A DNA stretch of 64,000 nt, from contig OZ076409.1 in assembly GCA_964187785.1 (NCBI GenBank), positions 79,362,001 through 79,426,000 of the forward strand, written 5' to 3'. The position numbers were made by a program, and so were the translations under genes. The notes below the pieces were generated by a model that was not told the DNA's origin, did not search any database, and worked only from the letters and a program-made list of their open reading frames with translations. This document shows positions 12,645-63,045 of the stretch, in pieces (position 1 is the stretch's first letter; each line of letters starts with the position of its first letter). Origin of the DNA: Amphiscolops sp. MND2022 (lineage: Eukaryota).

Positions 12645-12862
12645 AGAGTAAGTCTGGAAAAGACAAGAAGACGAATTGAGAGTGTTCTCGCTTGACTTTG
12701 GATCTGTGTATTACTAGTTTGTTTTGTTTGTTTCGGAAGCCTTATTCTATCCGACTATTTACTCATTTAGTTGTATCTTCTTTGAATGAACTGATAATTC
12801 GTCTAGTTACGAACTGAAAAGACAGGAAAGAGATAAGAGAACGATTCTTCTGTGTGTGTTTT

Positions 12863-21576: not shown

Positions 21577-21787
21577 GTCTGGAAAAGACAAGAAGACGAA
21601 TTGAGAGTGTTCTCGCTTGACTTTGGATCTGTGTATTACTAGTTTGTTTTGTTTGTTTCGGAAGCCTTATTCTATCCGACTATTTACTCATTTAGTTGTA
21701 TCTTCTTTGAATGAACTGATAATTCGTCTAGTTACGAACTGAAAAGACAGGAAAGAGATAAGAGAACGATTCTTCTGTGTGTGTTTT

Positions 21788-29308: not shown

Positions 29309-30971
29309 CCAAGGTAATAATTCAATTCACAAGCTTAAAGTGCGCCCAGTATTTAACGAGCTCAAATACACAGGCATGCAAGTGGATAATCAAAACTGCA
29401 AAACACCAACATGGCGCGCCACACAGCTAATAAGCACCAAACAAAGATGAAAAGACTCACTCGTTTTTGCAATTCTCGCTACTTACGGTGACTTTTTGCT
29501 AAAATCCACAATAATATATCAAACTAGAACGAACATGTGCTTATCTCCTAATTTAGCGACTTTTAAAACGTTTTTATGCTACACAGGCTCTACTGCCCGC
29601 CTTCTGTTCTTGACTTATTTTCTATTCAAAATGGCTGAAACAGCGAAAAGAGCAATAACGTGCTTAATGCCATGTCAAAATTTGGATCAAAATTTTACGG
29701 CAACTTTCTCTATCACCATCATGCTTGTTTGTATGTTTAGAGGGTGAAATTACAAAAAAAAGCAAAATATATTTGCAAGATACCAGTGAGAAGGACCCCT
29801 GTGGTACCTCTTGGTCTGTGTCTCATTTCAGAAAGTTTCATTACATTTATTCGACTTCGCAATTTTCACGCTTGTGTGCTTAAACACTTCAAGTTATAAA
29901 AGTTAATGATGACGTTTCACGAAATCATTCCATCTTTCGTCCAATTGAAGCGCTTATAGTAGTTGCCTTCAATCTTCGCACTTTTGTAGTAATTAACAGT
30001 GGAGATTTGCTTGGTTTTGCTCCAATGCACGTAATTTATCTGATGCAGTTTTGACGAATAGTCAAGATTTGTCAACTTTACTCACAACATTTCGCTGCGA
30101 TCGCAAGCAAATATCCAAGATGAAATCGAGCGGCAAGTTCCCATTTCGCTAATAAATGTCCGTTGGCGCTAGTTGACGGGTGGGTGAATTCGCCATTGAT
30201 TACATGGAAAACAATTAATTCATCCTCTAAAATATTGAGCCAGCTTGATGAAGAAAAGTGATCATTTTTCATCAATGTAGTGACGTTTCATGGAATTTAC
30301 AATGTAATTTCAATTACAGTCAACATAGACCCACCATTAGAATCTTTTTGATAATTAGTATGCTTCAAGAATTTATTAAGAAACCGAATCAATCGAAATC
30401 ATCGTTTCGTCAAGAAATATATGTAGATGAAAACAGGGAAAACATTTTTCATGAGATTATGAAGTGAAAAGTTGATTATTTTCTAGTAATACGAACATGG
30501 CGCGAAAAGTTTCGAAATCAATTTAGCGACTTTTTGCTATAGTAAAAAAATGTTGATAATGCTGATTACGCTCGCGAAAAACGTGTTTCCAGCGTGTTTT
30601 CATTGGGGACATGTATTCGTTTAAATGCTTTAGGTGAAAGTCTTTCGAATTTTGACAACATTAGAAACCGTCTCCTTTTGGAAAACACATTGTGGAATGC
30701 CAAGGGCAAACTGCCACATTTCGTAACCTTTACTCTAGACAGAGAGTTGTTTAGATATTATTTACAAACAAATTCTAATTGATTTGTGTCGTATTTATGT
30801 TTAGAATACTATAACATACCATTCGTTTGTTGAAGTATACTATAGATCAGTTGAAAGATACTTACTCCCCTAACATCGTTTTAAATAGCTTTGTGAGATC
30901 TTAACATGGCGCAGTAGCAAGATTTTATCCTTTTACACCACAACACACTCTTTTTAAACCACACCAACAAA

Positions 30972-33891
30972 ATGACCACTACAACAAAGATACAATTACC
31001 GTATCTAGAGGATACCAGACTAGACGGGAAGAAAATGTACACACCCAGAGAAAGGACCGAACGATTCCGGCATTACATAAAGAGAATTCACAATATCGAC
31101 ATCAAACAAATACTGACGGACGATACGGTGCCCACCGACGAGAATTGGAATACAAAAGAACCAGAAATCAGACAAGATTTCATTTGGGGCGCCAGACCGT
31201 CAGCTATTGAAATCATCACAAAAGGAGAGTTCAACACGGACCCCGACACGATCAAAGTTGAAAAATTAATACAACTCTTCTGGGAATATTACATGCCAAA
31301 CAGAAACACCTACCACAGCTGTGGAGATTTCTTTTGGACAAAACAAGAAGTCAATGAGACACCCGAGGAACACTGGAAAAAACTAGTAACACTGAAACAG
31401 AACTGCGATTTCAAGAACATAAAACATGAAGATATCCTCACATCAAAATTCATCACGTGTATAACCGACAAAAAATTCGGGAGAAGCTTATCCGTGAAAA
31501 GACCGTAGACTTGAAAACAACCATAAAACTCTTTACCCAAAACAGCTACGACCGTCGAAATAAATAATCCCCGATACCACCTTCTTTGGCAAAAGACAAA
31601 AAAAACAAGAACCCATACAAAAAAATCAAACAAAACAGTACCGAAACCAAACGAAGAAAAATAATTGCGGATTCTGCGGAAAACAGAACTGGACCCCAAC
31701 ACAACTGCCCGGCAAAAACGGAAAAATGCAACAACTGCCAGAAATAAGGGCATTTTGCACGGGTATGCCGCGGAAAACCAAACAACAAAAAAGAAAAATC
31801 AATTACCTAGGGGTTATAACATCAGAAGACAATGAAGAAACTGATCCCGAAGAAATACACCAAATGACGCAAATAAACAAAATAATACCGGACAATAATG
31901 ATCATTACGGCGTAAACGGAGAAAAACAAAGATTCATTATCGACACCGGCTCTCCGGTTACTATCATGCGAAACAACACAACCCTATACAAACCAGAATA
32001 TATCGAACCGCTGAGAGAAAATAATCAAGATGTGAATAAAAGCGAAATCAAATTATTGGCAAAAGTACGGGTAAACATCAAATACAACAACACATAAATC
32101 AAACTACCACTCCTAATTACAAAGAAACCGTTATACCACCCTTATTAGGAGTAAATTGGCTGAAACAATTACCAATCACAATCAACGGAGTCGCATTGAA
32201 CAAAGATACTAACCAATCACAAACAGCGATACACACAAAATTCAAGAAGTTATTCGAAACAAACCATACAATCAAGAATACCGAAGTGAAGATACATATC
32301 AAACCGGGATGTTGCCCAATACAACGGAAAGCACGACCAATACCATATCACCTGCAAGACGACGTAAAAACGAACTAGACCGATTAATAAAATCCGGACA
32401 CCTGGAAAGATTGGAAACAATCGAAGAAGACTGTTTCGTATCCCCCGTAGTAATTACGGTAAAAAAGGACAAAACGAACAAAATTGCACTCGAGGTCGCA
32501 AATTAAACGAAAACTGTATCCAAAAAAGACCATACATGCCAAATATGGACGAACTGCTTAACCAAATCTCTTCCGAACTGTCAAAAAACGACTTAGATCC
32601 AATTTGGACATTAGTGATAGATCTAGACTACGCCTACGGACAAATGAAATTGGAACCGGAACCAAGCAAACACTGTAATTTTGCAATTACGGGAGAGAAA
32701 ATAAATGGATATTACCGATTCCTGAAGGGATTTTACGGACCAGCTGATATACCCACAGTCTTTCAAGAAACGATAGACCGAACACTTCGCCACCAAATAC
32801 CAGTATGGCTGGACGATATATTATCGAAAAACGCGGTTCAAAAGAACAGCATACACAAAAAATAGAAACAGTCCCAGCGAAACTAGAAATTGAAGGATAC
32901 AAAGCCACAAAAGAAATCAAAATATTACCAAATAGAAACAGTGTGATTGGGACACACCATATCACAAGATGGTATCAGACCAAACAAAGAAAAAACACGC
33001 AATCAACGAATTGAGCACACCGACAAATACCAAAACACTTAAATTATTCCTCGGAGCAATACAATACTTCGCAAAATTTATACCAAACCTATCCGAAAAA
33101 ACCGACAATATGAGGCGACTACAGAAAAAAAGAACAAAATGGGGATGGACGGAAGAACAAAACACCGATTTGAATAACCTAGTAAAAAGAACTAACGACA
33201 CTACCTTGTCTACCACACTACAACGGAAACAAAGACAACGTCGTCAAAACCGACGCTTGAAATACCGGTCTGGGAATAGCTTTATGGTAACGACAAAACA
33301 ACGACGAATTAAAACCAATCGCTTTCGCCAGCAGATACTTGAATGATGCAAAAAAAAATCTGTCGGCGAACTGGAATAACTAGCCGTAGTCTGGGGCTAC
33401 GGTTCGGATTTTTCTCAGACCATCAAGCTCTGGAACCCTTATTAAAGAAAAACAAGATAAACAAACAGTACACTGCCCGACTAACACGGTGGTTAGACAG
33501 ATTAAACCATTTTGACATAACATTAAAGTACACCGCCGGCAAAAGAATCAAATTCATCAAATTTCTTTAGCCGAAATCCAACAGAAAATGCTGAACCGGC
33601 AGAAAATAACGAGGAAGAAATCGTCATCAACGCCATCGCGCAATTGGCAACGGTAAATGGCCGTATTGGACGGATTTTCAACCAATCAGAAGACAGAAAC
33701 ACTGATAGACGGACAGCATGCATAATACGCGCAAGCGGACTGGTACGCATCACTGCAGAACAAACAACAGCCATTCCAATTTAACACTGACCGCTAATCA
33801 GACCAACTCCGACAACAGCAAACGAAGCGCCCAATTAAAGCAAGAAATGATGGCTGATAACAAAATTAACTGTTGAAAGTCGGATGAATAC
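30972..33891 (+). pseudogene. Outer element gag-PR-RT-RH, heavily frameshifted
   Basis: IIDTGSP, IDLDYAYGQ, PVWLDD, FLGAIQY and DHQAL fragments spread across several frames. Confidence 0.88.
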
Positions 33892-36800
33892 TGTTATATT
33901 CGGATCATCCCGGCTTGACCTCTACCGTAAATTCGGATACCAGCAGTCTAGAAGCTAGGAGTTGTTTACCAACAAACTCTAAATAGACTCTCATACCATA
34001 CAAACATTTAAACTTTTGTTTTGGTTACAATACAGTGATACAAACATAGATCTACCTCTTTTAACAATTTTCTTTTCTCCTAACCTATATCCCTAGAAGA
34101 GAACATGGCGCAGTCAGCCGATTTTTAAACTGTGTAAACCCTTCATAACGGAAAACAATGGCTGAAAGAAACACCGTCCCAAACCTAAAAACAAAAGCCA
34201 CAGACGGAAACCCAGTATTTACACCGAGACAATGGCTTGAAAGGTTCCGGCAGTTTTGTAAACGGGAACACGAAATCGACATTACCCATTACTGAAAGGA
34301 GAAAACATTACGGACGCAAATTGCAACGGAAAAGAACAAGCTGTACAAGAAGATTTCATATGGGGAGTGGGACCGGAAGCACTATACCAAATAACCAGGG
34401 CCGAATATAAAACGGAACCCGACAGTATAAAAGTGAAGGACCAAATCCGGTTATTCACTGAATTCTACATGCCGAAAAGAAATACTTACCACAACCGAGG
34501 CGACTTCTTTTGGGCAAAGCAAACTGAAGATGAGACACCGGAGGAATTCTGGAGACGACTAATTGAAATCGAAAAAGAGTGTAACTTTAATGCAATATCA
34601 GCCGAAGAATTGTTGATATCAAAATACATGACCGCAATCACCGATAAAAAACTACGGGACAAAATAATGAAAGAAAAAACGCTGGAACTGAAGAAAATAA
34701 TCGAACTGATAAAACAAAATACATACGAGAAAAAGAATAAAAAGAACACAATACCGGAAGTTTTGATATCAACAAAAGAAAAACACATGATAAAGGAAGA
34801 ACCAATACAAAGAATGGAACGATTCGGTAACAGACCGAAAAATAAAAACTACGGAAACCGTACATGCAGATTTTGCAATGCTCCAAACTGGACACCGATG
34901 CACAAATGTCCCGCACTAGAAGCGAACTGCAACAAATGCGGAAAGAAGGGACATTACGCAAAAGCATGCAGACAGAATTTCAATAACAACCGAACAGTGA
35001 AAAGACTAACCGAAGAAGAAATGAACGAACCGGACGAATCAACAAGCGAATCAGATGAGAGCATACACCACATAAAAGAAATCAAGAAGATAAACGAAAT
35101 GAACAAACACTTCACAGCGGTAGTACGAGTTAATGGGGTAAAGAAAGAATTCATAATTGACACCGGATCACCCATTTCAATTATGCCACCCGACGAAAGA
35201 ATTATAAAATCAACCGAAATTCAGAAAATAACTAACCGATACCAAGATGTGAACAAAAACGAGGTAAAATTCCGGGGGAAAACACCGGTAAACATCGAAC
35301 ATGAAAATAACAATCAAAAAATGGAAATCCTAATAACCGAGAGAACAGATATAACACCATTACTCGGTATGGACTGGATGAAGAAATTCAAACTGACAAT
35401 GAGAAGAATACAATTAGCCGAGAACAACCAATCAGAACGCGAGAAAATATTTAGCAAATTTCCGGATCTATTTGAGAACAACGACACAATCAAAGATACC
35501 GAAACAAATATCCAATTAAAACCTGGACACTACCCGGTAAAACAAAAAGCTAGACCGATACCACTACATCTAAAGGAAGATGTAGGACGGGAATTAGAAA
35601 AACTAATAAAATCCGGACATTTGGAAAAAGTAAAAGACGTAGACGAAGATTGCTTCGTATCACCGGTGGTAATTACCGTGAAGAACGATAAATTGGTGAA
35701 AATAGCTCTGGACTCACGCAAATTAAATGACAGCTGTATCAAAATGAGACCGCACATGCCGAATATGGAAGAACTGTTAAACCAAATTTCGGTAGAAATA
35801 ACACGTGACCGAACACTACAACTATTCATGTCAAAGATCGACTTGGATTATGCGTACGGCCAAACGAAATTATCCGAAGAAACAAGCAGACAATGCGTAT
35901 TCGCATTAACCGGAGGAAAATTTAGTGAAAACTACCGGTTCAAAAAAGGTTTTTACGGCTTGGCAGATATACCCACAATATTCCAAGAGAAAATCGACCG
36001 TACACTCGGATACTGTACACCGGCTTGGCTAGACGATATTATCGTGGTAACCCGAGGAAATAAACAAGACCACGAGAAAAAGTTATTCGAAATACTGAAG
36101 AAACTAGAAAAAGCCGGCTACCGAGCAAGTAAAATGAAACCCGAATTCTTCATGAACCGCACAAAATGGCTGGGACACGAAATTGATGAAAACGGAATTA
36201 AACCGAACGAAGAAAAAGTGGAGGCAATATTGAAATTAAAACCACCGGAAAATACAAACGAACTAAAATCACTTCTCGGAACAATACAATACATGGCAAA
36301 ATGTCTACCAAAACTGTCGGAGCGGACCGATAGATTGAGAAAATTACTCAAAAAGAATGAACAATGGAAATGGGGACCGGAACAAGAAACGGATTTTAAG
36401 CGAATAAAACAAATGCTTACCGAAGGCCCATGCTTGGCACACTACGCAAAAGAAAAAGACAATATAGTGACAACCGACGCCAGCACAACCGGGCTGGAAA
36501 TAACACTCTGGCAAAAACAAGTTGACGGAAATACAAAACCGATAGCGTACGGAAGCAGATATTTGAATGAAACCGAAAAGAAATACTCAATCGGCGAATT
36601 GGAATTATTGGCGGTAGTGTGGGGATTAGAGAAATTCCGATTTTATCTATACGGGAAGAAAGTTCACCTATACACCGACCACCAAGCATTGGAACCACTC
36701 ATAAAAAGAAACCGAAGTAATAAACAATACAACGCGAGATTGACAAGGTGGTTAGACCGCCTAACGCACTTTGATATATCAATACAACATATCGCAGGCA

Positions 36801-39746
36801 GTAATTTGAAATTTACCGATTATCTCAGCAGAAATCCGGTAGGGGGAGCTATACCGGAAGACAATTACGATGAGGAATACGTAATTAACATATTGACCGA
36901 ACAAGCCGAATTGAATTTGAAATACGGACAATTATTCGCCAACCAATCAGAAAGGAGTAAAACCAAAGTTGAAATTAAAAATGGTACATCCGAAGAACAA
37001 AATGAGATAATCAACAACCAATCACATTCGAATAGAACATTCGAGAAGGATTACGGCGTGAACAAAATTCAACAAAGCGAGAATAATACATCCGGGCAGT
37101 CCGATATTAGCACGCAAAGCTCAAGTTGCCTACCGAAAGAAAATTTAAAATTTGTTCAAAACAAAATTAAACCAAACTTACATACGGAATTTACCGAAAT
37201 GGACCGAGACAATTTCCATCACTGGGGCGCTACACGTGAGATTATGGAGATAATACGGAAAACAGCCCCGAGACAAGTAGACTAGTGGAGCAAAGAAGCA
37301 CACTATCAAGACCCGGAAACCTACGACGCAGATATGACCACCAAACCCCATCGGACAATATTTGTCCCAACCCGCCCGAACAAGAGAAGCAGAGAAGAAA
37401 TAGCCGAAATCAATGCAGAGCTATTACGGCGAGCCAATCGACTGGGAGGTGGATATCATCCGATAAATTTCGAAGAAGAAGAAACCGAAGAAATGCGGGA
37501 AGAAGGAGAAGTAGAGACTGCCGAAACCGAAGAGGACAGTGTAATAATGCGAGGCGACAACCTACCGATCGTAGACCTCAGCAAGTATAACACAGACGGG
37601 AAAGAAGCAAAACATATTCAAATCAACCATATTGTCGGCAAACTCACCGCAAACAAAAAAGTAACTGAAGACCACATAAAGAAAGCCGAGTTCGACTTCA
37701 TGATGGACCTAAAAACGATGATAACGAAGACCGCCATAGATCCGGAACTGACCCGAGTCAGAACCAGCATGCGGAGAGAAGACCGCGAAACAATTCCGGA
37801 CGGATATCGGACAGTTTTTGACAAGCTGTCAATTAGATGGGGTCTGGTCTTTGTCGACGACCAAATAGTAATCCCAATCGACCTCAGACGCCGCCTATTG
37901 GATATACTACATTTCGGCCACTCCGGAATAATGAAGATGATGTCCGAAGCAAAAATATTCTGGTGGCCGGACATGAAGAAGGACATCGAAAATAAAGTAC
38001 AAGACTGTACAGCATGCCTCACATCAGGTAAAAAACTTAAATATCAATTACCGAAAAAACATTACGGAAAACTAGAAAAACTATCCGAACCGGGACAAGA
38101 AATTCAAATTGATTTTATCGGGAAATTACATAATAAACATTTACACGGCGAAACACAGGTACTGATTGCGGTTGATAGATTTAGCAAATGGCCGGCCGTA
38201 AAAATTTGTATATCAGCGGAAACAAAAGAAGTGATAAACTTCTTAACAAGTAACTTTAATCTATCCGGAATACCGGAGAAAATAAAATCAGACAAAGGCG
38301 GAGCATTTATATCGAAAGAATACCTAGAATTTCGCAAAAATCGAAACATGGAAATTGAATACTGTACACTCCGAATGCATACGGGAAACGAAGCAGTGGA
38401 AAGAGCAATACAAACGCTCAAAAATCTAATAATAGCAAACCTGGAAGACGGAATAGGCATAACTGAAAGCGTAAATAGAGCGTTACGGGTAATGCGATTT
38501 ACAATACATACCGGTCTGAAAATAACACCGTTTGAACTACATCACGGTAAAAAACCGAGAACCGAATTAACAAACATTGTTAAAGACGGAAAAACATACC
38601 TATCTAATTGGTCAGAAATGCCTATTTCAGCACCAACCAGACCCAAAATACCAATCTATGTGGGCCGCGATGCGGATGGAGAGATTACCAATCATATGGT
38701 AATGGCGAAGACAAAAACGGAGGAAAAACAATCTACCGAAAACCAAAAAACTCCAAAGAAGAAAAGTTCGGTTAGATATCCATTCAAATTTGTTGAAAAA
38801 AATTACAACAAAAAATCATTGGAAAGGAGATTCCAAAATAAAATACAAACCGCAGATAGCGGAACCGAAAGTACCATAAAAACAGATACCGGAAAAATAA
38901 TAAACCGGAAATTTATTTCGGGACCATTGTTTCAGACCGAAAGAAAAGCCAGAAAAGAACCGGCAATCAACACAAGCGGAGAGAGAAACCCCAAAAACAG
39001 ACACTGCTTGAGGGGTTTGAACGGGAAATATGGCCGATGGGACGAGATCCTACGGGACATCCTGAACGGCAAATTAAAAATCGTCCAAAATCCGAAACAA
39101 CCGGAAAGTGAGACCGAAGACGAAGATGACGACGACGAGTAGATGCCGGAAGAAACCGGAACGCCAATAAAGGTATGACACTTCTGAACGCAACGGAAGC
39201 TACGTACCGATCCGAACTAGGCCGGAAGAAGATGCTCTACAAATCTACACCGATGGAGAAACGACGGATGAGAACTTAGAAAACCAAAACCAAATAAGAC
39301 GATCAATTCGAAATAGTAAAAAACCGAATAGATACGGTAGCATACCTTATAACGGAAATTTTTGGGGTTAGAACAACCGGGTGTAATAAATCATATGTAA
39401 ATTACAGGAAACTTGTGGAACAGGCACAAAGGAACACCTCTACCCGAGAAGGTCCAGAAGCCATCCGATTTCTTTCCCGAAGAGAATACACCAGGACCAT
39501 CAAGCCAGAACTGAGAAGAGAGAGAGGGGAAATGTTATATTCGGTTCATACCGGCTTGACCTCTACCGTAAATTCGGATACCAGCAGTCTAGAAGCTAGG
39601 AGTTGTTTACCAACAAACTCTAAATAGACTCCCATACCATACATACATTTATTATTTTGTTTTGGTTACAATACAGTGATACAAACATAGATCTATCTCT
39701 TTTAACGATTTCCTTTTCTCTTAACCTATATCCTTAGAATAGAACA
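33892..39746 (+). mobile_element. Nested Mag-like Ty3/gypsy element (inner)
   Basis: 214-bp TG..CA LTRs 33892-34105 and 39533-39746 (~13 differences by eye); PBS TGGCGCAGTCAGC at 34106; PPT at 39513-39532. Confidence 0.93.
34158..39142 (+). pseudogene. Single-frame gag-pol of the inner element with a few frameshifts
   Basis: CNKCGKKGHYAKAC knuckle, IIDTGSP, PAWLDD, TTDAS RNase H, HFGH..CTAC, QID..SDKG..VER integrase; frameshifts near 34290 and 37260-37345. Confidence 0.9.
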
Positions 39747-39916: not shown

Positions 39917-41950
39917 AACCGCGACAACCAATTGAAATACAACTGGGGCGCAGACGATGAGATCATGAGGATCGTAAAGAGAAGGGACAACTCCCCGGAA
40001 ATCAGAGAAATCGCTGAAAGGAGAATCGAGCTAACAAAACCCGGCCACATGCGCTCCAAATGGCACAGGAAACCAGACAGAGAAATTCTTCTCCCAAGAA
40101 GACCAAATGAGGGCGCCTGAAAAGAAACAAAAAGAATCGATATCCGCCTACGAAGGAAAGAAGAACACTCGGGGGCGGATATTTCAAAGATTTCGGCGAC
40201 GAAATCCCATCGGCACTGGGAACATCAACTGAAACTAATACGGACACAATCAACATACAGAAAACAACGCATGACACCGAATCGACGGTTTCTTCAACAC
40301 CTGAAGAACCAACCACAACCCAGCAACCGGATCATACCCAGCAATCCCCAAAAAAGAATACCGCGACAGACCAATAGAGGAAATAGCCGTCCGGTATGTA
40401 CGGATAAATCGAGTCATCGAAGAAAGAGCACCAAGAAATCGACAGGAAGAAGACAACATCCGGTCAACCGAATAAGATTTCATGCTCAACCTGGAAACCC
40501 TAATCAAGGAAACAACAGCAGACCCGGACTTGATAGAGGTACAGTGATGTCTAGAAGACAAAAACATGCTGGCAATCCCCGAAGACTACAAGCACGTAGA
40601 AGAAAGACTTACACACCGCTGGGGATAACCAAGATCGACGACCGCATCATCGTCCCAAAAAGTCTACGCTACGCAGCACTAAATGCACTACACTTCGGCT
40701 ATCCGAGAGTCAATAAAATGCGCAACGACGCAACAATCTTTTGGTGGCCAAACATGCGAGCCGATTTTGAGAAGAAAGCCAAAACATACTCCGCTCGCCT
40801 AAACGCCGGTAAGAAATTAAAAACTCAACTACCCATTACCGAAAAATCAAAAATCGATCCGCCAAAAAACCCAGGGCAGGAAATTCAAATTGCTTTTCCG
40901 GGATATCTGAATACCAAACACCTAAACTCTGCCTTTTTTTCTAGTTGCCGTCGACAAGAATAGCCGCTGGCCGGTAGCTAAAATTTGTAAAAACACCAAT
41001 CACGATACGGTTATAACATTCCTACGGGAATATATAAACGTAAACGGCGTACCAGAAAGATCGAATCAGATAAAGGCAGTGCCTTTGTCTCAAAGGAATA
41101 TAAAAATTTCTACAATGAATACAATATAATCCGTAATTACGGTACTCCGAACTTACATACTGGAACAGAATAGGTTGAAAGAACCATCCAATCACTGAAG
41201 CACCTGATAAAAGCAAATCTAGAAGATACAAAGAACCTACGCGAAAGCTTATACAAAGCACTACACGTACCCCGTTTTACCACACACACCGAAATGAAGA
41301 AAACCCCTTCGAACAACACTTCGGACGAAAACAAGGAACCAAATTACTAACCTAAAAAATGCTAATTCAGTTGACTCCAAAGTCTTGTCAGTAAACATCC
41401 CTCGAAACTCCGCAGGAGAAATCACGGACCACCTGGTGATATCCAAAAAGAAGAACAATGACCCGAAGTATCGAAGGGAATGACATTCACACAAAACAAG
41501 AAACCGTCAAAAACAATAAGTAAAACGGAAACTTTAATTAACCATTTACCTTCTACGAAAAAGCCCACACGAAAAGCTCACTTGGGAGCAAATTCGATAA
41601 GAAACCACAGACCGCAATTTCTAGCATGAAACACACTATCGCCACCGACAAAAACAAAATCATACATAGAAATCTAATTTCTAACACGATACTGTTTCAG
41701 AACACGGCGACGCCAACGAAGAGACTAAACACAAGACTCTCTATCGCTGCCGACCAACCCTCCTGCTCGAAGATGACCGAAACGGGAACCACGACCAGCG
41801 GATACCGCAGGAAAGAACCACCAGGGCCAGAAAACACTAAAAACAGCTCTGACTGGCTCAAAAGAACGACTGGCCTCAAACGGGAAAGGGCAAATCACTA
41901 GCCCTGAAAAATCAGCCGGCAAACCGATGTACTCAGACTTGAGCATAGTG
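39917..41950 (+). pseudogene. Outer element pol remainder (integrase), degenerate; 3' limit approximate
   Basis: ALNALHFG..IFWWPNM..GQEIQI fragments homologous to the inner integrase. Confidence 0.8.
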
Positions 41951-46610: not shown

Positions 46611-46678
46611 TATGACAAAACCGAACATTTATAACAAAACTTCCAAATGGCAACTTTCAAAATTTGTTTGTGTTTCAG

Positions 46679-47279
46679 CCAAGTTAACGGCGAAGTTCAC
46701 CCCCAAAATGGTGTCTCAGTCCAACTGTTGAGTCCAAACAATCAGCCACAGGCGCCAGTGAGTGGAGTTAGTCCTCAAACTAGGAGAAAATCTTCGGAGC
46801 CGAAACACCATCGAAGACAATCAAGAGCGAATGCAGAAGCTAGAAGGCAGAACCGGAGAAAGACGTTTCAGAACCAGAAACACAGAATAACTGTTTCGTT
46901 GTTTCTCGTGTGTCTCTGCTTCATCATTATCATCATCCCCCAAACCGCCATCCAACTCATCAACTACTTCACTGAAAATTTGTCAATGACTCTCGTTCTC
47001 AACATCTACAGCATAACTGAGTTGATCTACCTGCTCAACTTCGTCATAAATCCAGTCATATTTGCATACAACAACAGCTACTTGACCGAGCAGATCAAAA
47101 AACGCGTCCCCAAACGGTTCAAGAAGAATGAAAAGAATGGATTAGAGGGCAAAAAGGCACAGAATGGAGCGTCCGCGATACCTATGAACTCCACTGCGTT
47201 GAAGAAGACTACAATACCTACCATGCCGACGTCATTGGTCACTATTGGTAACAATGCTCCTTTGACTTCGGAACTGTGA
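46679..47279 (+). CDS. Terminal exon of a class A (rhodopsin-like) GPCR: ICL3, TM6, TM7, C-tail
   Basis: tgtttcag acceptor ending at 46678; basic ICL3; TM6 ITVSLFLVCLCFIIIIIP; TM7 LLNFVINPVIFAY (NPxxY-like). Upstream exons not identified. Confidence 0.8.
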
Positions 47280-52120: not shown

Positions 52121-53283
52121 CATGTCAAAGTTGCAAAATCGGTTGATATTGCTGTACCAGAGCTTGCCGTTACATCACTCCCCGGGCTTTATGCATGACG
52201 TCCCTGTCATGCGGAGAGGCTGGCATTGAATACATCGCCACATCACGAGTGCAATCCACGGGGGTCTCAAGCTGGTGATGTTGCAACGGTCCAGTGGCAC
52301 TGTCATCTTTTGCTGATTGGGCAACTGCTTGGGTCTTGCCATCCAGAGAGCCTGCATCGTCCACAAACTGTTGAAACAGAGCTAGCTCGAGAGCTAGAAA
52401 ACCAGTACTCAAAAATACACCTTGAAATTGATCAAATCCAAGATTCCATACATCAATCAAAAAAGCACCACTTTTTTAGCACGAGTTTTCTGCAAAAATC
52501 TGAATAGGATCCTGCTAGCACTTTGGTTTTTGGACGTCTAAAATTTCTTTTACGGAGCGCTCACGCTCCAAGGCACACGTGGTTTTCAGCAAAAACATCT
52601 TTTCCACGGCAATAAAACTTCAGTTTGCAGCACAGTTAAAAGTTCTTTTCGCTAAAACTTCTTTTCAGCAGTAAAACCACTGTTTAAAAGGAAGACAAGC
52701 TGTTTCTTTGATACTTTTTTTTTACAGTTCGGCTTGGTTTGGGCAACACGCACTGATGTGCAGCTCCATACCTGGATAGAGTTCAGTAGCATCTGTCAAG
52801 GAGCGCATCAGAAGCAAACTACGAACTGCTCCTAAGAGTAAGCACTGGAGTAAAGCAGACAAAGGTAGATCAAATCTTGCCATTTGCAGATCAGGAGCGC
52901 GCGCGCTCCTTATTTTTCCGGATATCACGTTGGAATCTGGAGGAAACTTCTGGAAATCTTGGAAAAGAAAAACAAAAACAGCACCTTTCGGGCGTAGCAA
53001 TACATGTAGAGTTTTTGGGTTATTTATTGCACTGGGGCTCCCCGGGCTTTAATCGTTGAGCACCTTCATTAAGATAAAGATAGCAATGACTAACAAAAAA
53101 TGCGAAGAAAAGGCAAGAGGATGGATTGGGCGTTGAAGACACCCCTTCCCCCCTTGAAAAGAAGTGGAGTGTGGTTCTGGCAATTGATTTCAACGCATGC
53201 TACCAGAAGGTAACAAGCAACGCGTATTAAGCATGAGAAACCAAGATAGCAGATAGAAATTTAACAAAAAAATTACGTTGAAG

Positions 53284-55737
53284 CTAAGTGATGCCAGGAA
53301 ATTGTTCAATACTGGCAATGGAGACATAGACGCGATCATGCAGAAATACAGTAATATCAGTTCCTGCAAAAACGTCCATGACACTATGATAAAAATTGTC
53401 CAAACTGCGAAGTGGGCGTTCAGGGTCCACTATGGGGAAATGAATATCAGGGGTTTCGTTGGACAATAATGAAGCTTTCAAGTGCTCCAAGCATAAGACA
53501 AAGTCATCGGTGATTTGTGGTGAACGCTGGGAGGGGCGTGTTATCATTAGGTGAATAACTTGATTATCCATAAAAGACAATGAGGATGGGATAGTTAGGA
53601 CTTCACCAACTGTTGGGCGAAGTTGGAATACTTTGTCGCTGCCACACTCACGAAGAATGTAGCGCAAGGCAGCAGAATTGGTATTAAGGTCTACAGGGCA
53701 GCAAATTGCTACGTGGCCCTGCACCTGCAAGAAATCAGTTTGGTCGTAAACAATGTAGTCGACCAAATTTGGTCGTAGGGCACCAGGAAACACAATCTGA
53801 CGTCCGGGACCTTTTTCATCAGCTGGGTCTATATGGTTCTGTCCACGAATAGCAGATAGATCCTGCCATACGGACCTCGACAGAGACTGATTATCCACAT
53901 TTGCTGTTGACCATGAATCCAGGGTACCAAGTGCAGTGTGGATCGTTACAGGCTCGGTAAAGGAACGGGTCCAATCATCCAAAAGGCGGATGCGAGGGAA
54001 GCTGGCGAACAAAGTGATAATCAGCTCTAGCCACCATCGGAACCGTAGTTTTCCACGATAAAGATCAACGATGTGGAAGCACAAAATGAGTTCCTCAGTG
54101 ACAACAGTCCGCAAACTCTCTAGACAGCTCCGCAAGCTGTCAGGCTGGACCAAAGAGTGTGCATGTGGGGCAGTTACAAGCAACCACTAATATTGGGCTG
54201 GGCGATACACTTCACCAGGCTGACCGGTGATGCCGTATTTGTCAGATAGGAGGTCAGCGGTGATACAGCGGACCATTTGGATGGGTTCCCTCTCATAATT
54301 GAAAGGTCCAAATACAATGTTAGGAGTGACAGGAAGCACTGTGACGGCAAGTGTGAATTCCAATCCACGGAGATCGCTTGTCCACTCCTTGAAGCAAGCA
54401 CAAGGTTCCTCAGCAATCTTGGATTTAGACAATTCTTCCAGCACGACGTCTACAGGGAAGATACGTTCTCTTTCTAGTCCGGTGTATGTATTCTCTGCGC
54501 GGATGACAACGCGACTGACAAGAAGCTTACCACTGTGGATAAAAGGTTGAGGCTTTGGATCCACCGGAACTTTCACAGGTCCAAGTGGGATAGTGGGCGA
54601 TTTGTTCAGAGCCATAACACAAGTGCAATCGCGGAACCCACAGGTTCCACATCGATATCGAGGTACTCGATTCCGGCGTAAGCCATAGTGTGGGTTAACC
54701 TGCGTTGCGCCTTGGTCAACATCGGATGTAAGCTGAGCGGTGGGCGCATCAGAGTCAGAATCGGATGTAACTGATGGCTGTGTGTCATTTTCACGAGCTG
54801 TTTGCCGTGAAGAAATAGTGTGTCCTCGTGGCCTCCGAGGAGGTCGTCCTCGAGGACGTCCTCTGCGACTGGGAGTCCTTTGAGCGCGCACGCTCACGTT
54901 CTGCGACCGGGAATTTGTTGCTCGTGTCGAACAACGAGATAGAGCAGCTCGCGATCTGCCTTTGCCGCGCGTGCTAGGGACATTGTTCCGAGCAGTTGGC
55001 TCGTTGGTGTTGGATAACTCGGTGTCACGGGTTTCAGTGTTTTGGAGGTTGGAGGTACCATTCGGCAATTGGGGAATACTAATAGGCACATCCGTCAATG
55101 TAGGATTTGTCAACAGAGGAGCAGATGTACCCGCTAGTGATACTTCGGCTTCTCCAGTTGCAACGGGAATATCTTGCGATCGAGGTACTTCCGGAATAAC
55201 TTCAGATTCGGATAAAAACGGAAGCTCGTAGTCATTGGCAGGTTCAAATGACCGAGGTTGATCATCGGGAGGCATTGAAGCTTCGAATAGCGCCGGAGGT
55301 TCTTCCTGGGGATGATCTCGGGCATCTGACAGCAAGTCGTCAGAGCGCGAACGCTCTGAGTCGGAACTGGAATAGTCAAATTGCTGATAGTGGAGACGAC
55401 TGCCTCCAGCTCGCATTCTAGTACGCAACCTGGTGTCCATCCAGTGGCGTCTCCTTGATGGTAGCGATACATCTGATGCTTCAGAGAGCGGTTCTTCCTC
55501 GCGATATGAGGGTTGTGAGCAGTCATCTCGGATCTCCTCAGCAGAGTGCTCAGGCTCAGGATCCATGACAACGACCACTTCGCCACTCCCCGAGGGAAGC
55601 GCAACAAACTCCGTAGGGCCACCATGATGAGGTTTCAGCCGCTCAAAGTGCACTTTTTGTCCTGAGTCCAGGATATACACGCGGCCATCTTGTAGTACAT
55701 GGACAACCTTGTGCGGACCACGCCAAGCTCTCATCAA
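53284..55737 (-). pseudogene. Pol C-terminal extension: GPH motif, disordered linker with AT-hook-like motifs, Cys cluster, two TARG1/OARD1-like macrodomains
   Basis: ORFs 55737-54187 and 54183-53284 are in the same frame, separated by one TAG. RRGRPRGRP; CGTCGFRDCTC; macro-like patterns VAICCPVDL..VGEV..HLMIT..CLEHLK..DVFAGTDITVFL and MVRCITADL..PGEV..LLVT..SCLESLR. Confidence 0.65.
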
Positions 55738-55769
55738 CTTCGGTGATCCTTTTTGAGGTCAGAATACAT

Positions 55770-58700
55770 ACGGATACATAGCGGCAGAATACCCAAACGG
55801 GGTCTCCCACATTGTATGCGTTTGCACGAATAGCTCGATCATATTTTAGCTTTTGACGTTGTTGCGCCTGATGCGTGTTTCTACGCACCAAGTCATGAAT
55901 CTCTTGCTGGCGAGCAAGAATATGCTCCACAAAAGCTCCATGCGATTCAAATGATCTGGCTCCGAACTCCGGATACAGATAGGTGAGAGGAATAGCCTTT
56001 TCGGTCCCTCGGGTCAGCATGTAGGGTGAAAATCCAGTCGTGGCGTGGCGCGTTGAGTTATACGCTCCCATGACTTCATCCAAATGCTGGTCCCAATCTC
56101 TCATGCGACGCGAGCAAAATACCCGCAACAAAGTCAGCAAAGTCCGATTTTGTCGTTCAACCAGGCCTTGGGTGCGCGGATGACCCGCCGTAGAGGTAAC
56201 GTTTGTGACCTGAGATGCCCTCATGAACTGATTGGATACCTCTGCGGTCAAGTTGGGGGCATTGTCTGATTGCATCCGCGTAGGCGTGCCGTGTCTGGCA
56301 AACCATTCCTGCAAAAGCAACCTAGACGTGGTCACGGCATCGTAGTCTTCATGGCTGCAAGGTACAGCCTCCGCAAACTTGGAGAAATGGTCAATTATCA
56401 CCAATATGCCGGTGTTATTGTTATCGGAGGGGCATATTTTCAGATGGTCATATTGGACCAACTCATTGAAATACCCACTTTGGATATTTTTCAAGTGAAA
56501 CCGAACGTCACCCGGCCTGTCACGTACTTGCTGGCACGTGAGGCACTGACTCACGTACTGACCAACGCTGCGGCGAATACCTGGCCAGGTGTGGCGTTCT
56601 TGGATTCGCGAAACCACCTTTGCAATGCCTTGGTGGCCCATGGCATCATGAGCACGAAACAAAATTTCATGCTGGTACAATTGTGGCATTACAATCATGC
56701 ACGGACGTTCGTGCAGTGGACGTTGCTGAGGTGGATACTCAACACAAAGAATTCCATTTTGGTTCACAAACAGGAGATCTTTTTTCTGCTTGTAATAGTT
56801 ACGTGCGAACGCACGCACGTCGTCAGGAAAAATGTCATGATCAATAGACTCTTGTGCTACCAACTTCTTTATGGCTAGCACATGCACATCACGATTCTGC
56901 GCCAAAAGCAGATCCTTGATGCCATGCACCGTGTTGGCATGTTCATGAAGTTCCGTGTCTATGTCTTTGATGGCTAGGGCAGCTTGCCTAACCACCGTTG
57001 GAGCGGAAGCCATGGCTTGCTCCACTGTTTCGTCAAGGGCATATGTCATGCGTGAGGGGATATTTGCCACATGTGTAGGCAGAAAGTAATCTTGCCTAGC
57101 CTCTTCAGTGACGTCAATCCAGTCCTCAGGATAATCTGTATAGAAGTCTTCGTGAGCTTGCAATGTAGGCACTGGTGCCTCAAGTAGAGGAGCGCGTAGC
57201 GCCCTCTCCCTTTTCTCAGCGGCCTGACGGCGCTTACGCCGTCGTGCAACACGACAAACTGCATTTGTGGGGTCTGGTTTAGTGTTCCGCAAGTGAGCGG
57301 GCAATTGGGGGTGATTGGGTATCACCCGACCATGCAAATCGAACCAAGGTGCAATGGGCAGCTGGTCAAACTCCTCCTGTGAGAGGAAATTCCATTTGTC
57401 TGTCACAGCTGGCAGCTTCTCGAGCTGCTTCTCTCGCCACCGATAATCATTGGCTCGTTTACTGAGGCCATCGGCATTCCTATGCTGTGTCCTGGGACGA
57501 TGCTCCACTTTGAAATGGTACTTCTCGAGTGCCATAATCCATAGTCCAATCAAGGCCTGATCAGTGGAATACGTTTTGAGCCAAGAGAGAGCTTGATTGT
57601 CAACCCGAAGGATGAACTTTCTGGAGCAGAGATAACTGTGATTCTTCAAGATGAAATAATAAGCTGCGTACATTTCAAGCTTGGGAGCGCCATACTTCGC
57701 TTGAGTGGCATTCAACTTCTTGCTACCATACACAATTGGTCTCAGGCGCTTTTCGCCCGGAGGACCCTGCCACTGATGCAAAATGCCGGAAATTGCAACA
57801 GCACTGGCATCAGTGTCCAGCACAAATTCGCCCTCCGAGTCCGGTTGCGCCAAGGCAGTTGCCTCAATCAAAGCCAATTTGACGGCGTTGAAAGCCTGTT
57901 GCTGCTCATCCCCCCAGACGAAAGTTGCGCCCAGGCCGGTAATAGCATGCAAGGGGGCCACAAGCTTGGCATGCCAGGGAATGAACTCTCGATAATAGTT
58001 GGCGAAGCCCAAAAAGCTCTGCATCTCCGTTTTGTTCCTCGGTACTTCCCAATCGCGTAGTTTTGCCACTGCTTTAGGATCAGGTTTGATACCTTCGGCA
58101 GAGACCACACGTCCCAGGTACTTGATTTCCGACTTCATAAAGTCGCACTTAGCGACTCTCATTTTGAAGCCAGCTTCGCGCAGACATTCAAATACCTCGC
58201 GTAAGCGTACCATGTGGTCCTCGACTGTCTCGGTAGCAATGACGATGTCGTCAATGTACGCCATCACCATGCTTCCTTCCCGGTTCACAATTTTCCGTAG
58301 CGCTCGCGCTATGGCTCGCTGGAAAGTAGCTGAAGCGTTACACATCCCAAAGGGCATACGTCTCCACTCAAACAAACCCAGCTCGCAAGCAAAGGCCGTT
58401 TTCTGCCTATCTGCTTTGCGCACTGGTATCTGCCAGAAAGCCCTGGCCAAGTCAATACTGGTGTAAATCTTGGCCTTACCCAAGCGTGAAAGGCTTTCAT
58501 CGTTGCGTGGGAGGGGATACGCGTCCTTTATTGTGACAGCGTTGAGGGGGCGAAAGTCGCAGCAGAACCGCAACTCCCCATTTTTCTTTTTTACCATCAA
58601 AATTCCACTCGCCCAAGGTGATAGCGAAGGTTGGATCATGCCCAAAGCCAGGAGATTGCGTACTTCTTGATTAGCGCGCTCCGCCTTGCCAGGCGACATT

Positions 58701-60556
58701 CTTCTCGCGCCTTCACGGTGCGGTGTAGCCCCAGGCTCCAACTCAACAGGATGCTTGGCTATTGTGCAGCGACCAATGTCTGCTTTGTGCTTCATGAATA
58801 GGTCATCAAATTCCGTAAGGATGTTGTTCAGCGAGTCGCGGGCAGTCTTCCCCCACAACTTTTGTACCTCCTCTAACTGAGATTCGGGTCCAGGAATAGG
58901 GGCCAAGAGATCAGGGTCAGTGCGCTTTCTGATCTCGCGCTCTGACAACCCCTCCTCCGATGGGTCTGTAGAGTAGAGAAACTCGAACTCCGACGACGAC
59001 GAACATTTTGAATGCGAGTTCAGGTCCATTTCAGAATAGACCTTGTTGACGAACTCGTTTGGGGAGTCCGACTTTTCGTCACTCTCGCCTTTGTGCGCTA
59101 GCGCACATTGGGGGACTGCTTGGTAGACTAGGCGTACTGGCGCAGCAGTACCAAGCATGGTGCCGCACTTCACTTTCTGGTCATTGCTTGTCAGATTGCC
59201 AACAGAGACATAGAACGAACCTGTCTCTTCAACAGTGGCTATAGTGTCTTCCACGAATATAGTGTTCTTCAGCAATCGGTTCGGTGTTGCAAAGTTAATC
59301 ACAACATTACTGAAAGCAAAAGCTTCCAAGTTCGAAGTGACCACCTTGGCACGTAGAACAGCACGCTCGAATGGCTGTAGCACTACGTCTTGATCCAAAA
59401 CTACTGTACTGGATAAAGTTTCATCGCTCGTCTGGGCGTGTGCGTGATGCCACACGGGCTTAGCCGGGGCTCGCACCACTATTTTCGTGGCGGTCAGATC
59501 TACGAGCACGTTGTATGCTCGCAGAAAACTCCTACCCAGCAAGAAATCTTCCAAGCCATGTGCGTCATCAACGACCACGAAATTTGTTTCGAGTTCATAT
59601 CCACCAAGTTGGAAGCCCACATGCTCCGCTATTCCGAACGTTTTCATCGTCTTCCCATTAGCAGCATACAAGTCGATTCGATAAGGTTGTAGCGCTACAC
59701 CTGTCCGCAAGGCTACACGGTTGAAGGCTGAGAAACTCATGATTGATACGCCTGAACCCGTGTCGACCATTCCTCTCAGTGGAATAGGGTTGGCATCTGG
59801 CACTGCAAAAGATACTACGAGCGACGCACGCTCATCTATGCGGGCCTCACCTGTGGGCTCCTGCTTGCTGATGCTATAGCAGCGTAATTCATGTGGCCCT
59901 AGACACACTCCTTGAGGGAACACATCTACTACCACGCTAGCATCAAATTTCATGTCCACGCCATCTATGTTGGCATGCACAGGAACTGTGGTGTATGCCG
60001 TGCACGTACTAGCTTCGCCTTCAGTATACCATTCTTTTGGCAGTGGTAAGGAGATCTTTTTGACAGTCGAATTGCTAGCTAACTCCAGCTTCAATTTTTC
60101 CAAGGTCAAATCTGGGCGTATTTGTTGCTCCGAGGCCAGCACTAGGTGTACAGACAATAAAGTCCGGCCACTAGGGTCAAACGTTGTGGACTCCAAACCT
60201 GTCTGCACCTGCTTTGTGCCACAGGTGACAGTCAATGGAGCATTTACGGTGGCTTGGTCAGCTGGGCGTAGCATTAATACCCTGCCAGAGGCAGTAGACA
60301 GGGTTTGCGTTGCATCCGTTTTCTTTTCTTCAGCCCTAGGGCTGGAAGTTTCTGACTGGATTGATAATGTTGGGCAACCTGCAGACACCTCAGTTGTGCA
60401 CGATTTCACTGGGACAGCAGGCGCTGGAACCGCTGCTGCAGCACATTGCTGGGACTCACTATGTGGGTCAAGAATATGCTCCGGGCGATGCACCACCAGC
60501 TTGCGTCTCGCGCAAGCACTCTGCAAGCAGCGCGCGGATTGCTCTAAGGTTGCGGT
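55770..60556 (-). pseudogene. pol: Pol (protease, RT, RNase H, integrase)
   Basis: MVDTGSG, IDLARAFWQ, AYIDD, LDTDAS, AHDAMGH..CLTC, QYD..SDNA..VERQN; frameshift near 55770. Confidence 0.92.
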
Positions 60557-61609
60557 CTATCTGTATTCAGGGGTTGTGTGTACTGACGCAGCCGGCATCG
60601 GCAATCGCGTCGACCGGCGTGCAAGGGGTGGCAGCGATTCATACTGCGGAGCCACTGGTGACCCCGGCACTTGGTCGCTCTGTAGGTACTGATAAGGTAC
60701 AGTCTCGGTGCACCCTGGGTCACGAGGCTGTTGTTGGTGACGACTCCTTTGGAGTTCCTGTACAGTGAACCGAAGTGATTCCACGGTAGGTGGGTCGGCT
60801 AGATACGCCTCAGTCGCAAACACTACCGTCAGTTCTCGTTGCAACACGGGATCGCTGACCCCATCCATGAACCGATGCAAGATTTCATAGCGTCGGGTTG
60901 TGATAGGCTCATCGGGAAAACCCTGACTCCTCAGACCCTCTAATGCATCTAGATACTGCATCAGGCCCTCTTTCTCAAGCTGATTCCGCAACCTGAAAGC
61001 CTGCCTCACTGGCCAGCGGTTACTCCCAGTCCCAAATCTGCTGGAGAGCAAGGTAGTCACCTTCTCGTGAGAATCCCGTTCGGACTCCGGTTTGTTGATT
61101 ATAAAACTCCGAGCTTCACCACCTAAGTGATCGATTATCGCCCAGGCCTTGTCGACAGGTGAAGCATTGGAATAAACTCGCTCCAAATACCGTTTCATCA
61201 CGAGCAACCACTCTTCAACAGTCCCGTCTTTCGAACCTCTGTATAAGGTTGGTCGAACAGCGGTTTGATCACGATTGGCAATCAAGGGAGCCAACGCTTT
61301 AGTTATAGTTTTGGATATCGCCTCCGTGAATTTCAACTGTTCGGGAGATATCAATTCATCTTTTGGGTCATCAGTACCATGATTGCTCTCGAGCAACCCA
61401 CCTCGATCCCTAGGCGACGTGTGAGCCATGCCCATGGTTGCGTTGTTCAAAGATATCGAGGCCGGTTCATCGATTGGTTGTGCTGCGCTGGTCCCCTCTC
61501 CCCCCTTCAAAAGGAAGCAGAGGCGTTGGAATTGTTCCGAAGGTTTCATTCCAGCGTTAGATGTAGCAGAATGTGGCTCAAAGGAGTCTTTCAGCAAACT
61601 CGGTAGCAA
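60557..61609 (-). CDS. gag: Gag-like ORF, in frame with pol and separated by one TAG; start uncertain
   Basis: YRGSKDGTVEEWL..IIDHLGGEA..LSSRFG..FRLRNQLEKE retrotransposon capsid-like pattern. Confidence 0.8.
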   Translation of the reverse strand: MLPSLLKDSFEPHSATSNAGMKPSEQFQRLCFLLKGGEGTSAAQPIDEPASISLNNATMGMAHTSPRDRGGLLESNHGTDDPKDELISPEQLKFTEAISKTITKALAPLIANRDQTAVRPTLYRGSKDGTVEEWLLVMKRYLERVYSNASPVDKAWAIIDHLGGEARSFIINKPESERDSHEKVTTLLSSRFGTGSNRWPVRQAFRLRNQLEKEGLMQYLDALEGLRSQGFPDEPITTRRYEILHRFMDGVSDPVLQRELTVVFATEAYLADPPTVESLRFTVQELQRSRHQQQPRDPGCTETVPYQYLQSDQVPGSPVAPQYESLPPLARRSTRLPMPAASVHTTPEYR

Positions 61610-62845
61610 CTTCGCCTCTCAACCTCGAGAGATTTGGGTATTTTGCAATTGCCCAAAAGAGTTCTCTGCAAATTTGGCGTAATATTCGGCGTTGGTGCTA
61701 CTCGATACAGCGAAATAACACAAAAATGAGGCACCAGAGTGTTCAAAAAGGTGTCACACTCGGGCAATCCGCTCAAATTTGTCGTCACTAGGAAGTTGCT
61801 CCTCCCAAAATCTTGTGATTTTGGCTAAGTCGGAACACTCAGGGTCTCTTTTGGATATCGAAAACCCTGCTCCAGGTAACTCCTAGAAATTTTCGTTTGG
61901 AAAATGTAGTCCAGAGTGCGTCGCAGGCACTTTAAAACTGCTGCCTTGAACTGTTCAGGATCAAATTTCAAAGTTCCAGAGGAGTCCAAAATTTATGACC
62001 CCTGCCGGCAATTTTTTTGAACCGTGGGAATTGCCTCGTTTGCACCCAGGAAGGTCTACTGGGTCCGTTCCGTTGGAAAATGAAGGCTTTTTGGGTCTGC
62101 CTCCTGTACAGCGGAAGTATTGAGGATTTACACTGATAGTTTTTCTGGCGTTTTCGGGATTTTCGTTCAAAACGTGTGTCTGAACAAAGTCAAATTCAGT
62201 TTTACCAATCGTATTGGGTACAAAATAACACAGCACGTTTCGTCAGCCACACAAGTCAGAAAAATAACCTTCCGTAGCTGATAATTGCCTCCAGCTTCAA
62301 GCTAGAGCCTTTTTCAACGATTTTTGGATTTTTCAATTTTTTTCGAAAATCACTCAGATGGCTTTTACAAGTGCTGAAAACGTGGTATCGGGCTCAAAAT
62401 TGGTCACGCGATCGCACGTACAGCCAGCTACACTACAAAAACAATCAATGAGAATTCAGACCACTGGGCAAGATTTAGATCTGATACTGAAGTTCCGTAT
62501 CACCGTGTCTCGATTGACACGATTTTTCACATGTAATCAAAGACTCTCGTCCACAGTGCTGAGCTCTCGAGCTCACTTTTTCAGCAACCGTGCACCAAAT
62601 GACACTAATAAGAATAGTCCAGGGCAATGTTATCCCAACTTTCCAATAAGGTGCGCCGACAGTTCCAAAAAATGATCCAATTCGTTACAATACACAGGAT
62701 ATCACAACTTCAAGTAACAAAATGCTATGATCCAGCAAGGCAGCCCACTCGATACTGATCAAATATCACACGCATAGCAATGAACGAACTACTGGGAGTT
62801 CAAACTAGGGGTTTTGACAGGTTTCCAACACGTAGAAAGGACTTT

Positions 62846-63045
62846 NNNNNNNNNNNNNNNNNNNNNNNNNNNNNNNNNNNNNNNNNNNNNNNNNNNNNNN
62901 NNNNNNNNNNNNNNNNNNNNNNNNNNNNNNNNNNNNNNNNNNNNNNNNNNNNNNNNNNNNNNNNNNNNNNNNNNNNNNNNNNNNNNNNNNNNNNNNNNNN
63001 NNNNNNNNNNNNNNNNNNNNNNNNNNNNNNNNNNNNNNNNNNNNN
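62846..63045. other. Assembly gap (200 N)
   Basis: Run of N. Confidence 1.

Follow-up and report, generated by a model that had tools for sequence, protein, structure and literature searches.

A decayed Ty3/Gypsy element with two domain repeats in its integrase tail

The DNA that we analyzed is a 64-kb stretch of contig OZ076409.1 of Amphiscolops sp. MND2022 (here called the window), and the element described below lies on its minus strand. A capsid-like Gag region (positions 60557 to 61618), recognized from its ORF, a PNMA match (E = 0.065), and tblastn alignment to long relatives, is followed by Pol (55775 to 60556), in which Pfam families for protease, reverse transcriptase (RT), RNase H, and the zinc finger and core of integrase occur in Ty3/Gypsy order. 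ORFs and Pfam matches together place the protease-RT-RNase H-integrase stretch at about 60556 to 55643, downstream of the Gag-like ORF. Comparison with relatives adds a C-terminal integrase module (55633 to 55758), which is without a Pfam match and which, from its motifs, we take to be GPY/F-SH3-like. The Gag-protease-RT-RNase H-integrase order and the Ty3-like RT place the element in Ty3/Gypsy, and the best match of an intact relative (P0338) in the Protein Data Bank (PDB) is Ty3-G Gag-Pol (E = 1e−100).

Behind the integrase lies a long tail. It begins with a low-complexity, poorly conserved linker (54868 to 55632), putative AT-hook-like GRP motifs recognized by their pattern (54823 to 54867; one to three in those long relatives whose sequence extends this far), and a Cys4 motif, CxxCGxRxCxC (54619 to 54660), which is conserved in the alignment of relatives and possibly forms a zinc knuckle. 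Two repeats resembling the macrodomain hydrolase TARG1 follow. Repeat 1 (53974 to 54330), which was folded alone, searched by structure, and aligned, has a shortened TARG1-like fold from which loop 1 is deleted, and in the window copy it is interrupted by a TAG at 54189 to 54187. It is flanked by the two halves of an extra β-rich subdomain: the first (54337 to 54528), seen in the secondary structure of the model and outside the structure-aligned range, is 35 to 38% identical between distant subfamilies, and the second (53833 to 53973) is modeled as a strand and two helices. Repeat 2 (53329 to 53763) has a full TARG1-like fold according to the model of an intact relative (P0002), structure searches, and alignment. 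The boundaries of both repeats are structure-aligned ranges converted to window coordinates. Beyond repeat 2, a polypurine tract followed by TG (53142 to 53155) is the probable start of the 3′ LTR.

The motifs, coordinates, and TAG quoted in a first-pass annotation of this DNA are present in the sequence. That annotation also put the repeats at the end of a polyprotein, which holds for intact relatives but not for the window copy, where a frame break at 55775/55758 cuts the GPY/F module and the tail off Pol. In addition, Gag ends with an in-frame stop at 60559, at which intact relatives read through into Pol (tblastn of long relatives). Because of its two in-frame stops (60559 and the TAG at 54189) and one frame break relative to long relatives, the window copy is, by its sequence, a dead insertion.

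Within the 64-kb window, blastn found no 5′ LTR matching the presumed 3′ LTR; the window has a 200-N gap at 62846 to 63045. On the minus strand at 62604 to 62580, short of that gap, TGTCA followed by TTTGGTG resembles an LTR end and a primer-binding site, and the sequence upstream of it is unlike the presumed 3′ LTR. No env ORF follows pol: on the minus strand between 53283 and 50000, the longest frame without a stop has 108 codons.

The rest of the window is crowded with mobile elements. Two further Gag-Pol elements (28445 to 21788 on the minus strand and 34262 to 39142 on the plus strand) have RTs that are ~25 to 28% identical to that of the macro-bearing family, and the second has decayed relatives at about 30900 to 33600 and 40100 to 41000. 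Positions 4793 to 13722 and 13723 to 22649 form an 8.9-kb head-to-tail duplication (99.3% identical) that contains unassigned ORFs on each strand as well as arrays of 33-base repeats, and that is either very recent or an assembly artifact. Positions 1 to 1814 recur at 2830 to 4643 (99.6% identical). The only host-like gene seen in the window is a plus-strand ORF at 46635 to 47279, which by eye resembles the final helices and the tail of a G protein-coupled receptor.

Intact relatives keep both repeats in frame with integrase

A search with the 300-amino-acid last ORF recovered 189 relatives among 959 candidates; the best 120 of the 189 are all ENA records, 40 to 97% identical to the query. A profile search yielded 384 representatives, and a search for longer forms yielded 19 proteins, 9 of which cover 91 to 92% of the module in frame with integrase. 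Relative P0338 is a single ORF of 2175 amino acids from a cluster of 1094 sequences. Among P0338 to P0415, 72 proteins have at least 1200 residues; 66 of them were aligned, and 56 of the 72 span both repeats in one frame with integrase, although ~50 of these 56 belong to one near-identical subfamily and the counts are of database clusters, not of independent events. The intact order is Gag, protease, RT, RNase H, integrase, and GPY/F, then the linker, the AT-hooks, CxxCGxRxCxC, the subdomain flanking repeat 1, and, last, repeat 2. The tail after integrase is open for 776 to 790 residues in dozens of polyproteins, and many database entries are truncated within it. Clusters of 1094 and 2541 sequences point to very high copy numbers for the clade. 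None of 226 pattern matches in JGI metagenome contigs and none of 64 in IMG/VR were confirmed as relatives.

These relatives exclude two simpler accounts of the locus. The repeats cannot be a host gene adjoining the element, being in frame with integrase in the relatives, and the TAG is not characteristic of the family: of 173 relatives that span the site, 170 have a residue there and 3 have a gap, so the family comparison that the first-pass annotation had proposed makes the stop private to the window copy.

Measured as protein-level identity between the most distant subfamilies, conservation is 83% in RT, 68% in integrase, 20 to 23% in the linker, 42 to 46% in repeat 1, and 41 to 43% in repeat 2. 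Given that the repeats retain about twice the identity of the linker, we conclude that they are constrained, though less so than the enzymes.

Both repeats are modeled as TARG1-type macrodomains

Pfam assigns no family to the window ORFs of the tail, and neither the window nor any of 65 relatives reaches the gathering threshold of the Macro family (PF01661). Scans of the 65 relatives against PHROGs and NCBIfam gave weak single-member matches only. In sequence searches of the PDB, all five matches in each search were TARG1, but none was significant (phmmer, E = 1.2; profile, E = 0.18). Because the likeness to TARG1 is non-significant by sequence alone, the structure searches decide.

For repeat 2, we used the AlphaFold model of the intact relative P0002, which is 95% identical to the window copy (alignment of 65 sequences, pLDDT 75.7). 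In Foldseek, TARG1 entries occupy ranks 1 to 8 (best E = 5.0e−10, target TM 0.75 to 0.84), and VIA likewise places TARG1 (Z = 17.1, rmsd 3.8, 142 residues aligned) above DarG (Z = 15.4). For repeat 1, the window's own region was folded alone with X at the stop (pLDDT 84.9, pTM 0.81). TARG1 again ranks first in Foldseek (E = 4.6e−5) and in VIA (Z = 10.1, rmsd 3.0, 116 residues aligned), with DarG and BT1257 tied within 1 Z. The match between the profiles of the two repeats is weak (hhalign, E = 7e−4, score 27), and none of 30 column shuffles reaches it (best score, 25.5). The first-pass proposal of tandem TARG1-like macrodomains behind the integrase is thereby confirmed for both repeats at the level of modeled folds. 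A chance resemblance to TARG1 is ruled out by the structure searches and by the intact sister domains described below.

Other libraries provided leads only. In the ESM Atlas, repeat 2 scored 0.90 to 0.91 with unnamed clusters and 0.89 with a Macro cluster, while all scores for the repeat 1 region were 0.77 or less. In a viral structure library, repeat 1 matched macro domains from phages and from RNA viruses of insects, and no match to the repeat 1 region covered the extra β-rich subdomain. This subdomain (54528 to 54337 and 53973 to 53833, minus strand) is well modeled, is split by repeat 1, and is absent from elements with a single macro domain.

The ADP-ribose pocket looks disabled

Residues are numbered after TARG1 from PDB alignments, in which Gly43, Ile44, Lys84, Gly123, and Asp125 agree with the positions used in the papers; each denominator below is the number of sequences aligned across that site, out of 355 supplied. 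In repeat 2, the catalytic Lys84 is replaced by Arg in 202 of 211 sequences (53538 to 53536 in the window), and the diphosphate loop GCGLD has become DPER (53427 to 53416), with Asp for Gly121 (178/186), Pro at position 122, Glu for Gly123 (167/183), and Arg at position 124 (174/183). The alignments agree here with the first-pass annotation, which had noted the Lys-to-Arg exchange and the absence of the GCGLD loop. The acidic partner Asp125 is lost as well, being Pro or Ser in 167 of 181 sequences, Gly43 has become Ala in 228 of 245, and Ile44 has become Ala, Met, or Thr. Asp20, which in TARG1 contacts the adenine, is retained (225/242; 53736 to 53734).

Repeat 1 has diverged further from TARG1. 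At its Lys84 site, 165 of 176 sequences have Ala or Ser, Asp20 is replaced, and ~24 residues that cover loop 1 (Gly43-Ile44) and its helices are missing. Its diphosphate loop reads DLYRGK and, like that of repeat 2, keeps the loop Asp (192/204 in repeat 1).

In TARG1 itself, according to the accessible text of the respective reports, the K84A mutant is inactive (PMC8501950), and G123E, G43E, and I44E each abolish ADP-ribose binding and catalysis (PMC5928194). Because Glu occupies the Gly123 site across the family, a standard binding-dead TARG1 substitution is fixed here. By analogy with these mutants, we consider it likely that the repeats neither bind nor hydrolyze ADP-ribose, and, as read from the alignment, the pocket looks disabled. 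Two points count against this reading: Asp20 persists in repeat 2, where a phosphate might still be bound by the Arg at position 84, and SCO6735 is described as an active hydrolase of the mechanistically diverse TARG1 class that is without both catalytic residues (PMC7050489, accessible text).

Sister lineages carry a single domain, some with an intact pocket

Sister elements were sought with an RT-to-integrase query, which gave 374 matches, and the best 120 were examined. The repeat 2 profile found one C-terminal domain in each of P0418, P0421, P0429, and P0430, and a wider profile added the single-domain P0488, P0491, and P0492. In P0429, P0430, and P0434, all Ty3/Gypsy polyproteins, a single TARG1-like domain makes up the C-terminal 150 residues before the tail. 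P0429 and P0430 retain the catalytic Lys together with a PRIGCGMD loop; P0434 retains the Lys with a TGYD loop. Two of these domains exceed the Pfam Macro cutoff of 22 (P0430, 23.4 bits; P0434, 22.2 bits), and P0429 falls below it; P0483, a member of the P0429 cluster with an intact domain, matches TARG1 at E = 2.5e−25. Judged from their residues, the P0429, P0430, and P0434 domains are probably active ADP-ribose erasers.

A second type of single domain, in P0418, P0491, and P0492, has Arg or Lys at the catalytic site and a DPNRG loop, which resembles both the DPER of repeat 2 and the DLYRG of repeat 1; P0491 and P0492 come from a cluster of 2541 sequences. The Cys4 motif is found in the tandem clade and not in the single-domain sisters. 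On another branch of the RT tree, P0488/P0489 have lost both the Lys and the glycine loop, apparently a second, independent degeneration of a macro domain.

In a tree of RT-RNase H (23 rows, LG+G4, leaving out two very long branches and the short-coverage P0355), the tandem clade is monophyletic (100/100) and sister to the DPNRG singles (99/99), with the intact-loop elements outside. In a tree of the domains, which has SH-aLRT support only and long branches that call for caution about long-branch effects, both repeats group with the DPNRG singles (SH-aLRT 99). The two trees concur on a series from intact single through DPNRG single to tandem. The simplest history compatible with these sequences is that an active domain was captured, lost its diphosphate loop, and was then duplicated.

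Among other RT relatives, the repeat 2 profile detected no macro domain in P0437, P0439, or P0449 to P0463; many entries are truncated. P0439, a gypsy polyprotein of 3697 amino acids, ends instead in a superfamily 1 helicase (residues 3108 to 3622; Pfam AAA_11/AAA_12), with two NCBI records of equal length. In P0428, a GDSL/SGNH-like domain (residues 1328 to 1469) follows a truncated integrase in frame; this is a single record and may be a rearranged copy.

Comparison with known systems

The best structural match of both repeats, human TARG1 (OARD1, C6orf130; PDB 4J5Q, 4J5R, and 2LGR), an ALC1-like hydrolase, shares their fold and the Asp20 kept in repeat 2. It differs in that Lys84, Asp125, Gly121, Gly123, Gly43, and Ile44 are replaced here, at an overall identity of 16 to 20%, and in that the domain here is in tandem, shortened in repeat 1, and fused behind a retrotransposon integrase. 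By these comparisons, the repeats descend from a TARG1-class hydrolase yet lack the residues that mark its active members, and they would work unlike TARG1. The next-best matches belong to the same macro subclass: DarG (PDB 5M31, 5M3I, and 7OMU), Poa1p (6LFQ), and BT1257 (2AFC) score Z = 12 to 15 with repeat 2, below TARG1, and Z = 9 to 10 with repeat 1. The catalytic Lys and basic patch of DarG have no counterpart in the repeats. TARG1-like annotations occur in insect and fish retroelement polyproteins.

Captured macro domains have also been described in another group of LTR retroelements, the epsilon-like endogenous retroviruses of ray-finned fish, which encode macro-domain ORFs (PMC4977317, citing Basta et al. 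2009). Those elements, however, belong to Retroviridae and not to Ty3/Gypsy, their macro domains are additional ORFs, and the accessible text of that report describes no tandem or disabled pocket. Closest to the tandem form are the single-macro Gypsy sisters (P0429/P0430, P0434, P0488, and P0418/P0491/P0492), which have a homologous domain in the same position and a related RT but only one copy, and which are without AT-hooks, Cys4 motif, or extra subdomain; P0429, P0430, and P0434 differ additionally in that they retain the catalytic Lys along with a glycine loop. The capture of macro domains by LTR retroelements is already known. In the literature searched, we found no report of a Gypsy integrase followed by a TARG1-like domain or of a tandem disabled form, although subscription papers, Repbase, and supplements may describe the intact form. 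The word "macro" is absent from the accessible text of PMC12440569 and PMC13524379 and has irrelevant mentions only in that of PMC12957317 and PMC7217437.

Chromoviruses such as MAGGY likewise have a Ty3/Gypsy integrase that ends in an accessory fold of the reader type, and chromodomains at this C terminus direct gypsy integration, as stated in the accessible part of bioRxiv 2021.11.30.470311. The chromodomain is, however, another fold, ~380 residues of linker intervene here, and a targeting role is drawn here by analogy only. The first-pass annotation had placed the macrodomains "in place of a chromodomain," and this stands as a description of position. We reject the replacement of an ancestral chromodomain: none was found in the window ORFs, in the 18 relatives scanned, or in the Pfam lists of the best 120 of the 374 RT-integrase relatives, and hence nothing shows that the lineage ever had one.

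A possible role in docking the integration complex

We propose that this Ty3/Gypsy clade goes back to an element whose integrase tail had acquired a terminal ADP-ribose hydrolase domain of the TARG1/OARD1 type. As the single-domain sisters show (alignment and two trees), the diphosphate-binding loop was first swapped for an Asp-Pro-x-Arg loop. The domain was then duplicated, with repeat 1 losing loop 1 and becoming embedded in the new β-rich subdomain, and AT-hooks and the Cys4 motif arose upstream; sequence and models show these events, whose order is conjectural. Both repeats would now be pseudo-macrodomains that, to judge from the TARG1 mutants, neither hydrolyze nor normally bind ADP-ribose. 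The module may have been kept for protein docking: its position suggests that, with the AT-hooks, it tethers the integration complex to host chromatin or a nuclear protein, much as a chromodomain would. We infer this docking, by analogy, more weakly than the loss of ADP-ribose binding, and give it an even chance. As a whole explanation, a non-catalytic tether made of pseudo-macrodomains on the integrase tail, together with AT-hooks and a Cys4 motif, has about one chance in two by our estimate. An integration-tether role is plausible, and one exerted through ADP-ribose is improbable.

A more specific version of the tether, which we regard as rather speculative, is that an active TARG1 eraser, captured at first for stripping ADP-ribose marks set by the host, became in steps a tandem pseudo-macrodomain whose acid-lined former pocket reads a new ligand of cationic nature, such as a nuclear protein or a histone tail rich in Lys/Arg, and, with the AT-hooks and the zinc motif, steers integration.

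The module might instead be a counter-defense decoy, a disarmed TARG1 mimic that blocks a host silencing or PARP-pathway protein via a surface other than the pocket and has no role in choosing integration sites. The domains were kept after catalysis was lost and evolve faster than the enzymes (41 to 46% identity versus 83% for RT and 68% for integrase), the clade has reached very high copy number, and the intact ancestor is most simply taken for an eraser of host ADP-ribose marks. Yet the key motifs of the surface show almost no variation and are far from hypervariable, and the upstream AT-hooks point to chromatin. Sequence by itself fits a decoy and a tether alike, and we rate the decoy as unlikely.

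Somewhat less probable still is that repeat 2 reads ADP-ribose without catalysis, through a pocket rebuilt around Arg84, Arg124, and Asp20, and in this way directs integration to ADP-ribosylated chromatin or protects modified proteins of the element. The three residues are indeed highly conserved, the whole fold is retained (TM of about 0.8), and the TARG1 class is, as noted above, mechanistically diverse. However, Glu at Gly123 and Asp at Gly121 occupy the diphosphate site, where G123E eliminates binding by TARG1, Gly43 has become Ala, repeat 2 is net acidic, and repeat 1 has neither loop 1 nor Asp20. The reader role suggested in the first-pass annotation is accordingly disfavored.

Charge also bears on whether the module binds RNA or cDNA of the element in the particle via a non-pocket surface. 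TARG1 binds RNA independently of its pocket, and its G123E mutant still does so (PMC5928194, accessible text); in repeat 2, several Arg are nearly invariant. The three Lys-keeping sister domains with a glycine loop have net charges of +5 to +10, but this basic excess is gone from the tandem form, in which repeat 2 has a net charge of −9 in the window copy and of −4 to −8 in all but one of four relatives, and repeat 1 of the window copy has −1, and we consider such a nucleic acid-binding module doubtful. That the repeats are a neutral relic carried at the end of the polyprotein is very improbable. The pocket is indeed lost, the window copy is broken, and a large number of entries stop short within the tail; but identity across deep subfamilies is twice as high in the repeats as in the linker next to them, dozens of polyproteins have the open 776- to 790-residue tail, the models are well folded, and there are new invariant motifs.

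Implications for the biology of the clade

Accessory domains on integrase tails determine the landing sites of LTR elements and the way these escape silencing. In the present clade, natural forms range from an ADP-ribose eraser that is intact to a pseudoenzyme present in duplicate, and all occupy one position, so that four small domains can be compared; the series suggests that a captured enzyme was turned into a docking module. The disarmed pair escapes Pfam, which shows how repeat annotation misses such domains. The intact sisters make a role of ADP-ribosylation against retrotransposons directly testable. If the acid-lined pocket reading is true, the clade would hold a macrodomain-based integration tether whose intermediates survive in sister lineages, while the sisters with an intact domain would be a sign that invertebrates use ADP-ribosylation to defend themselves against retrotransposons.
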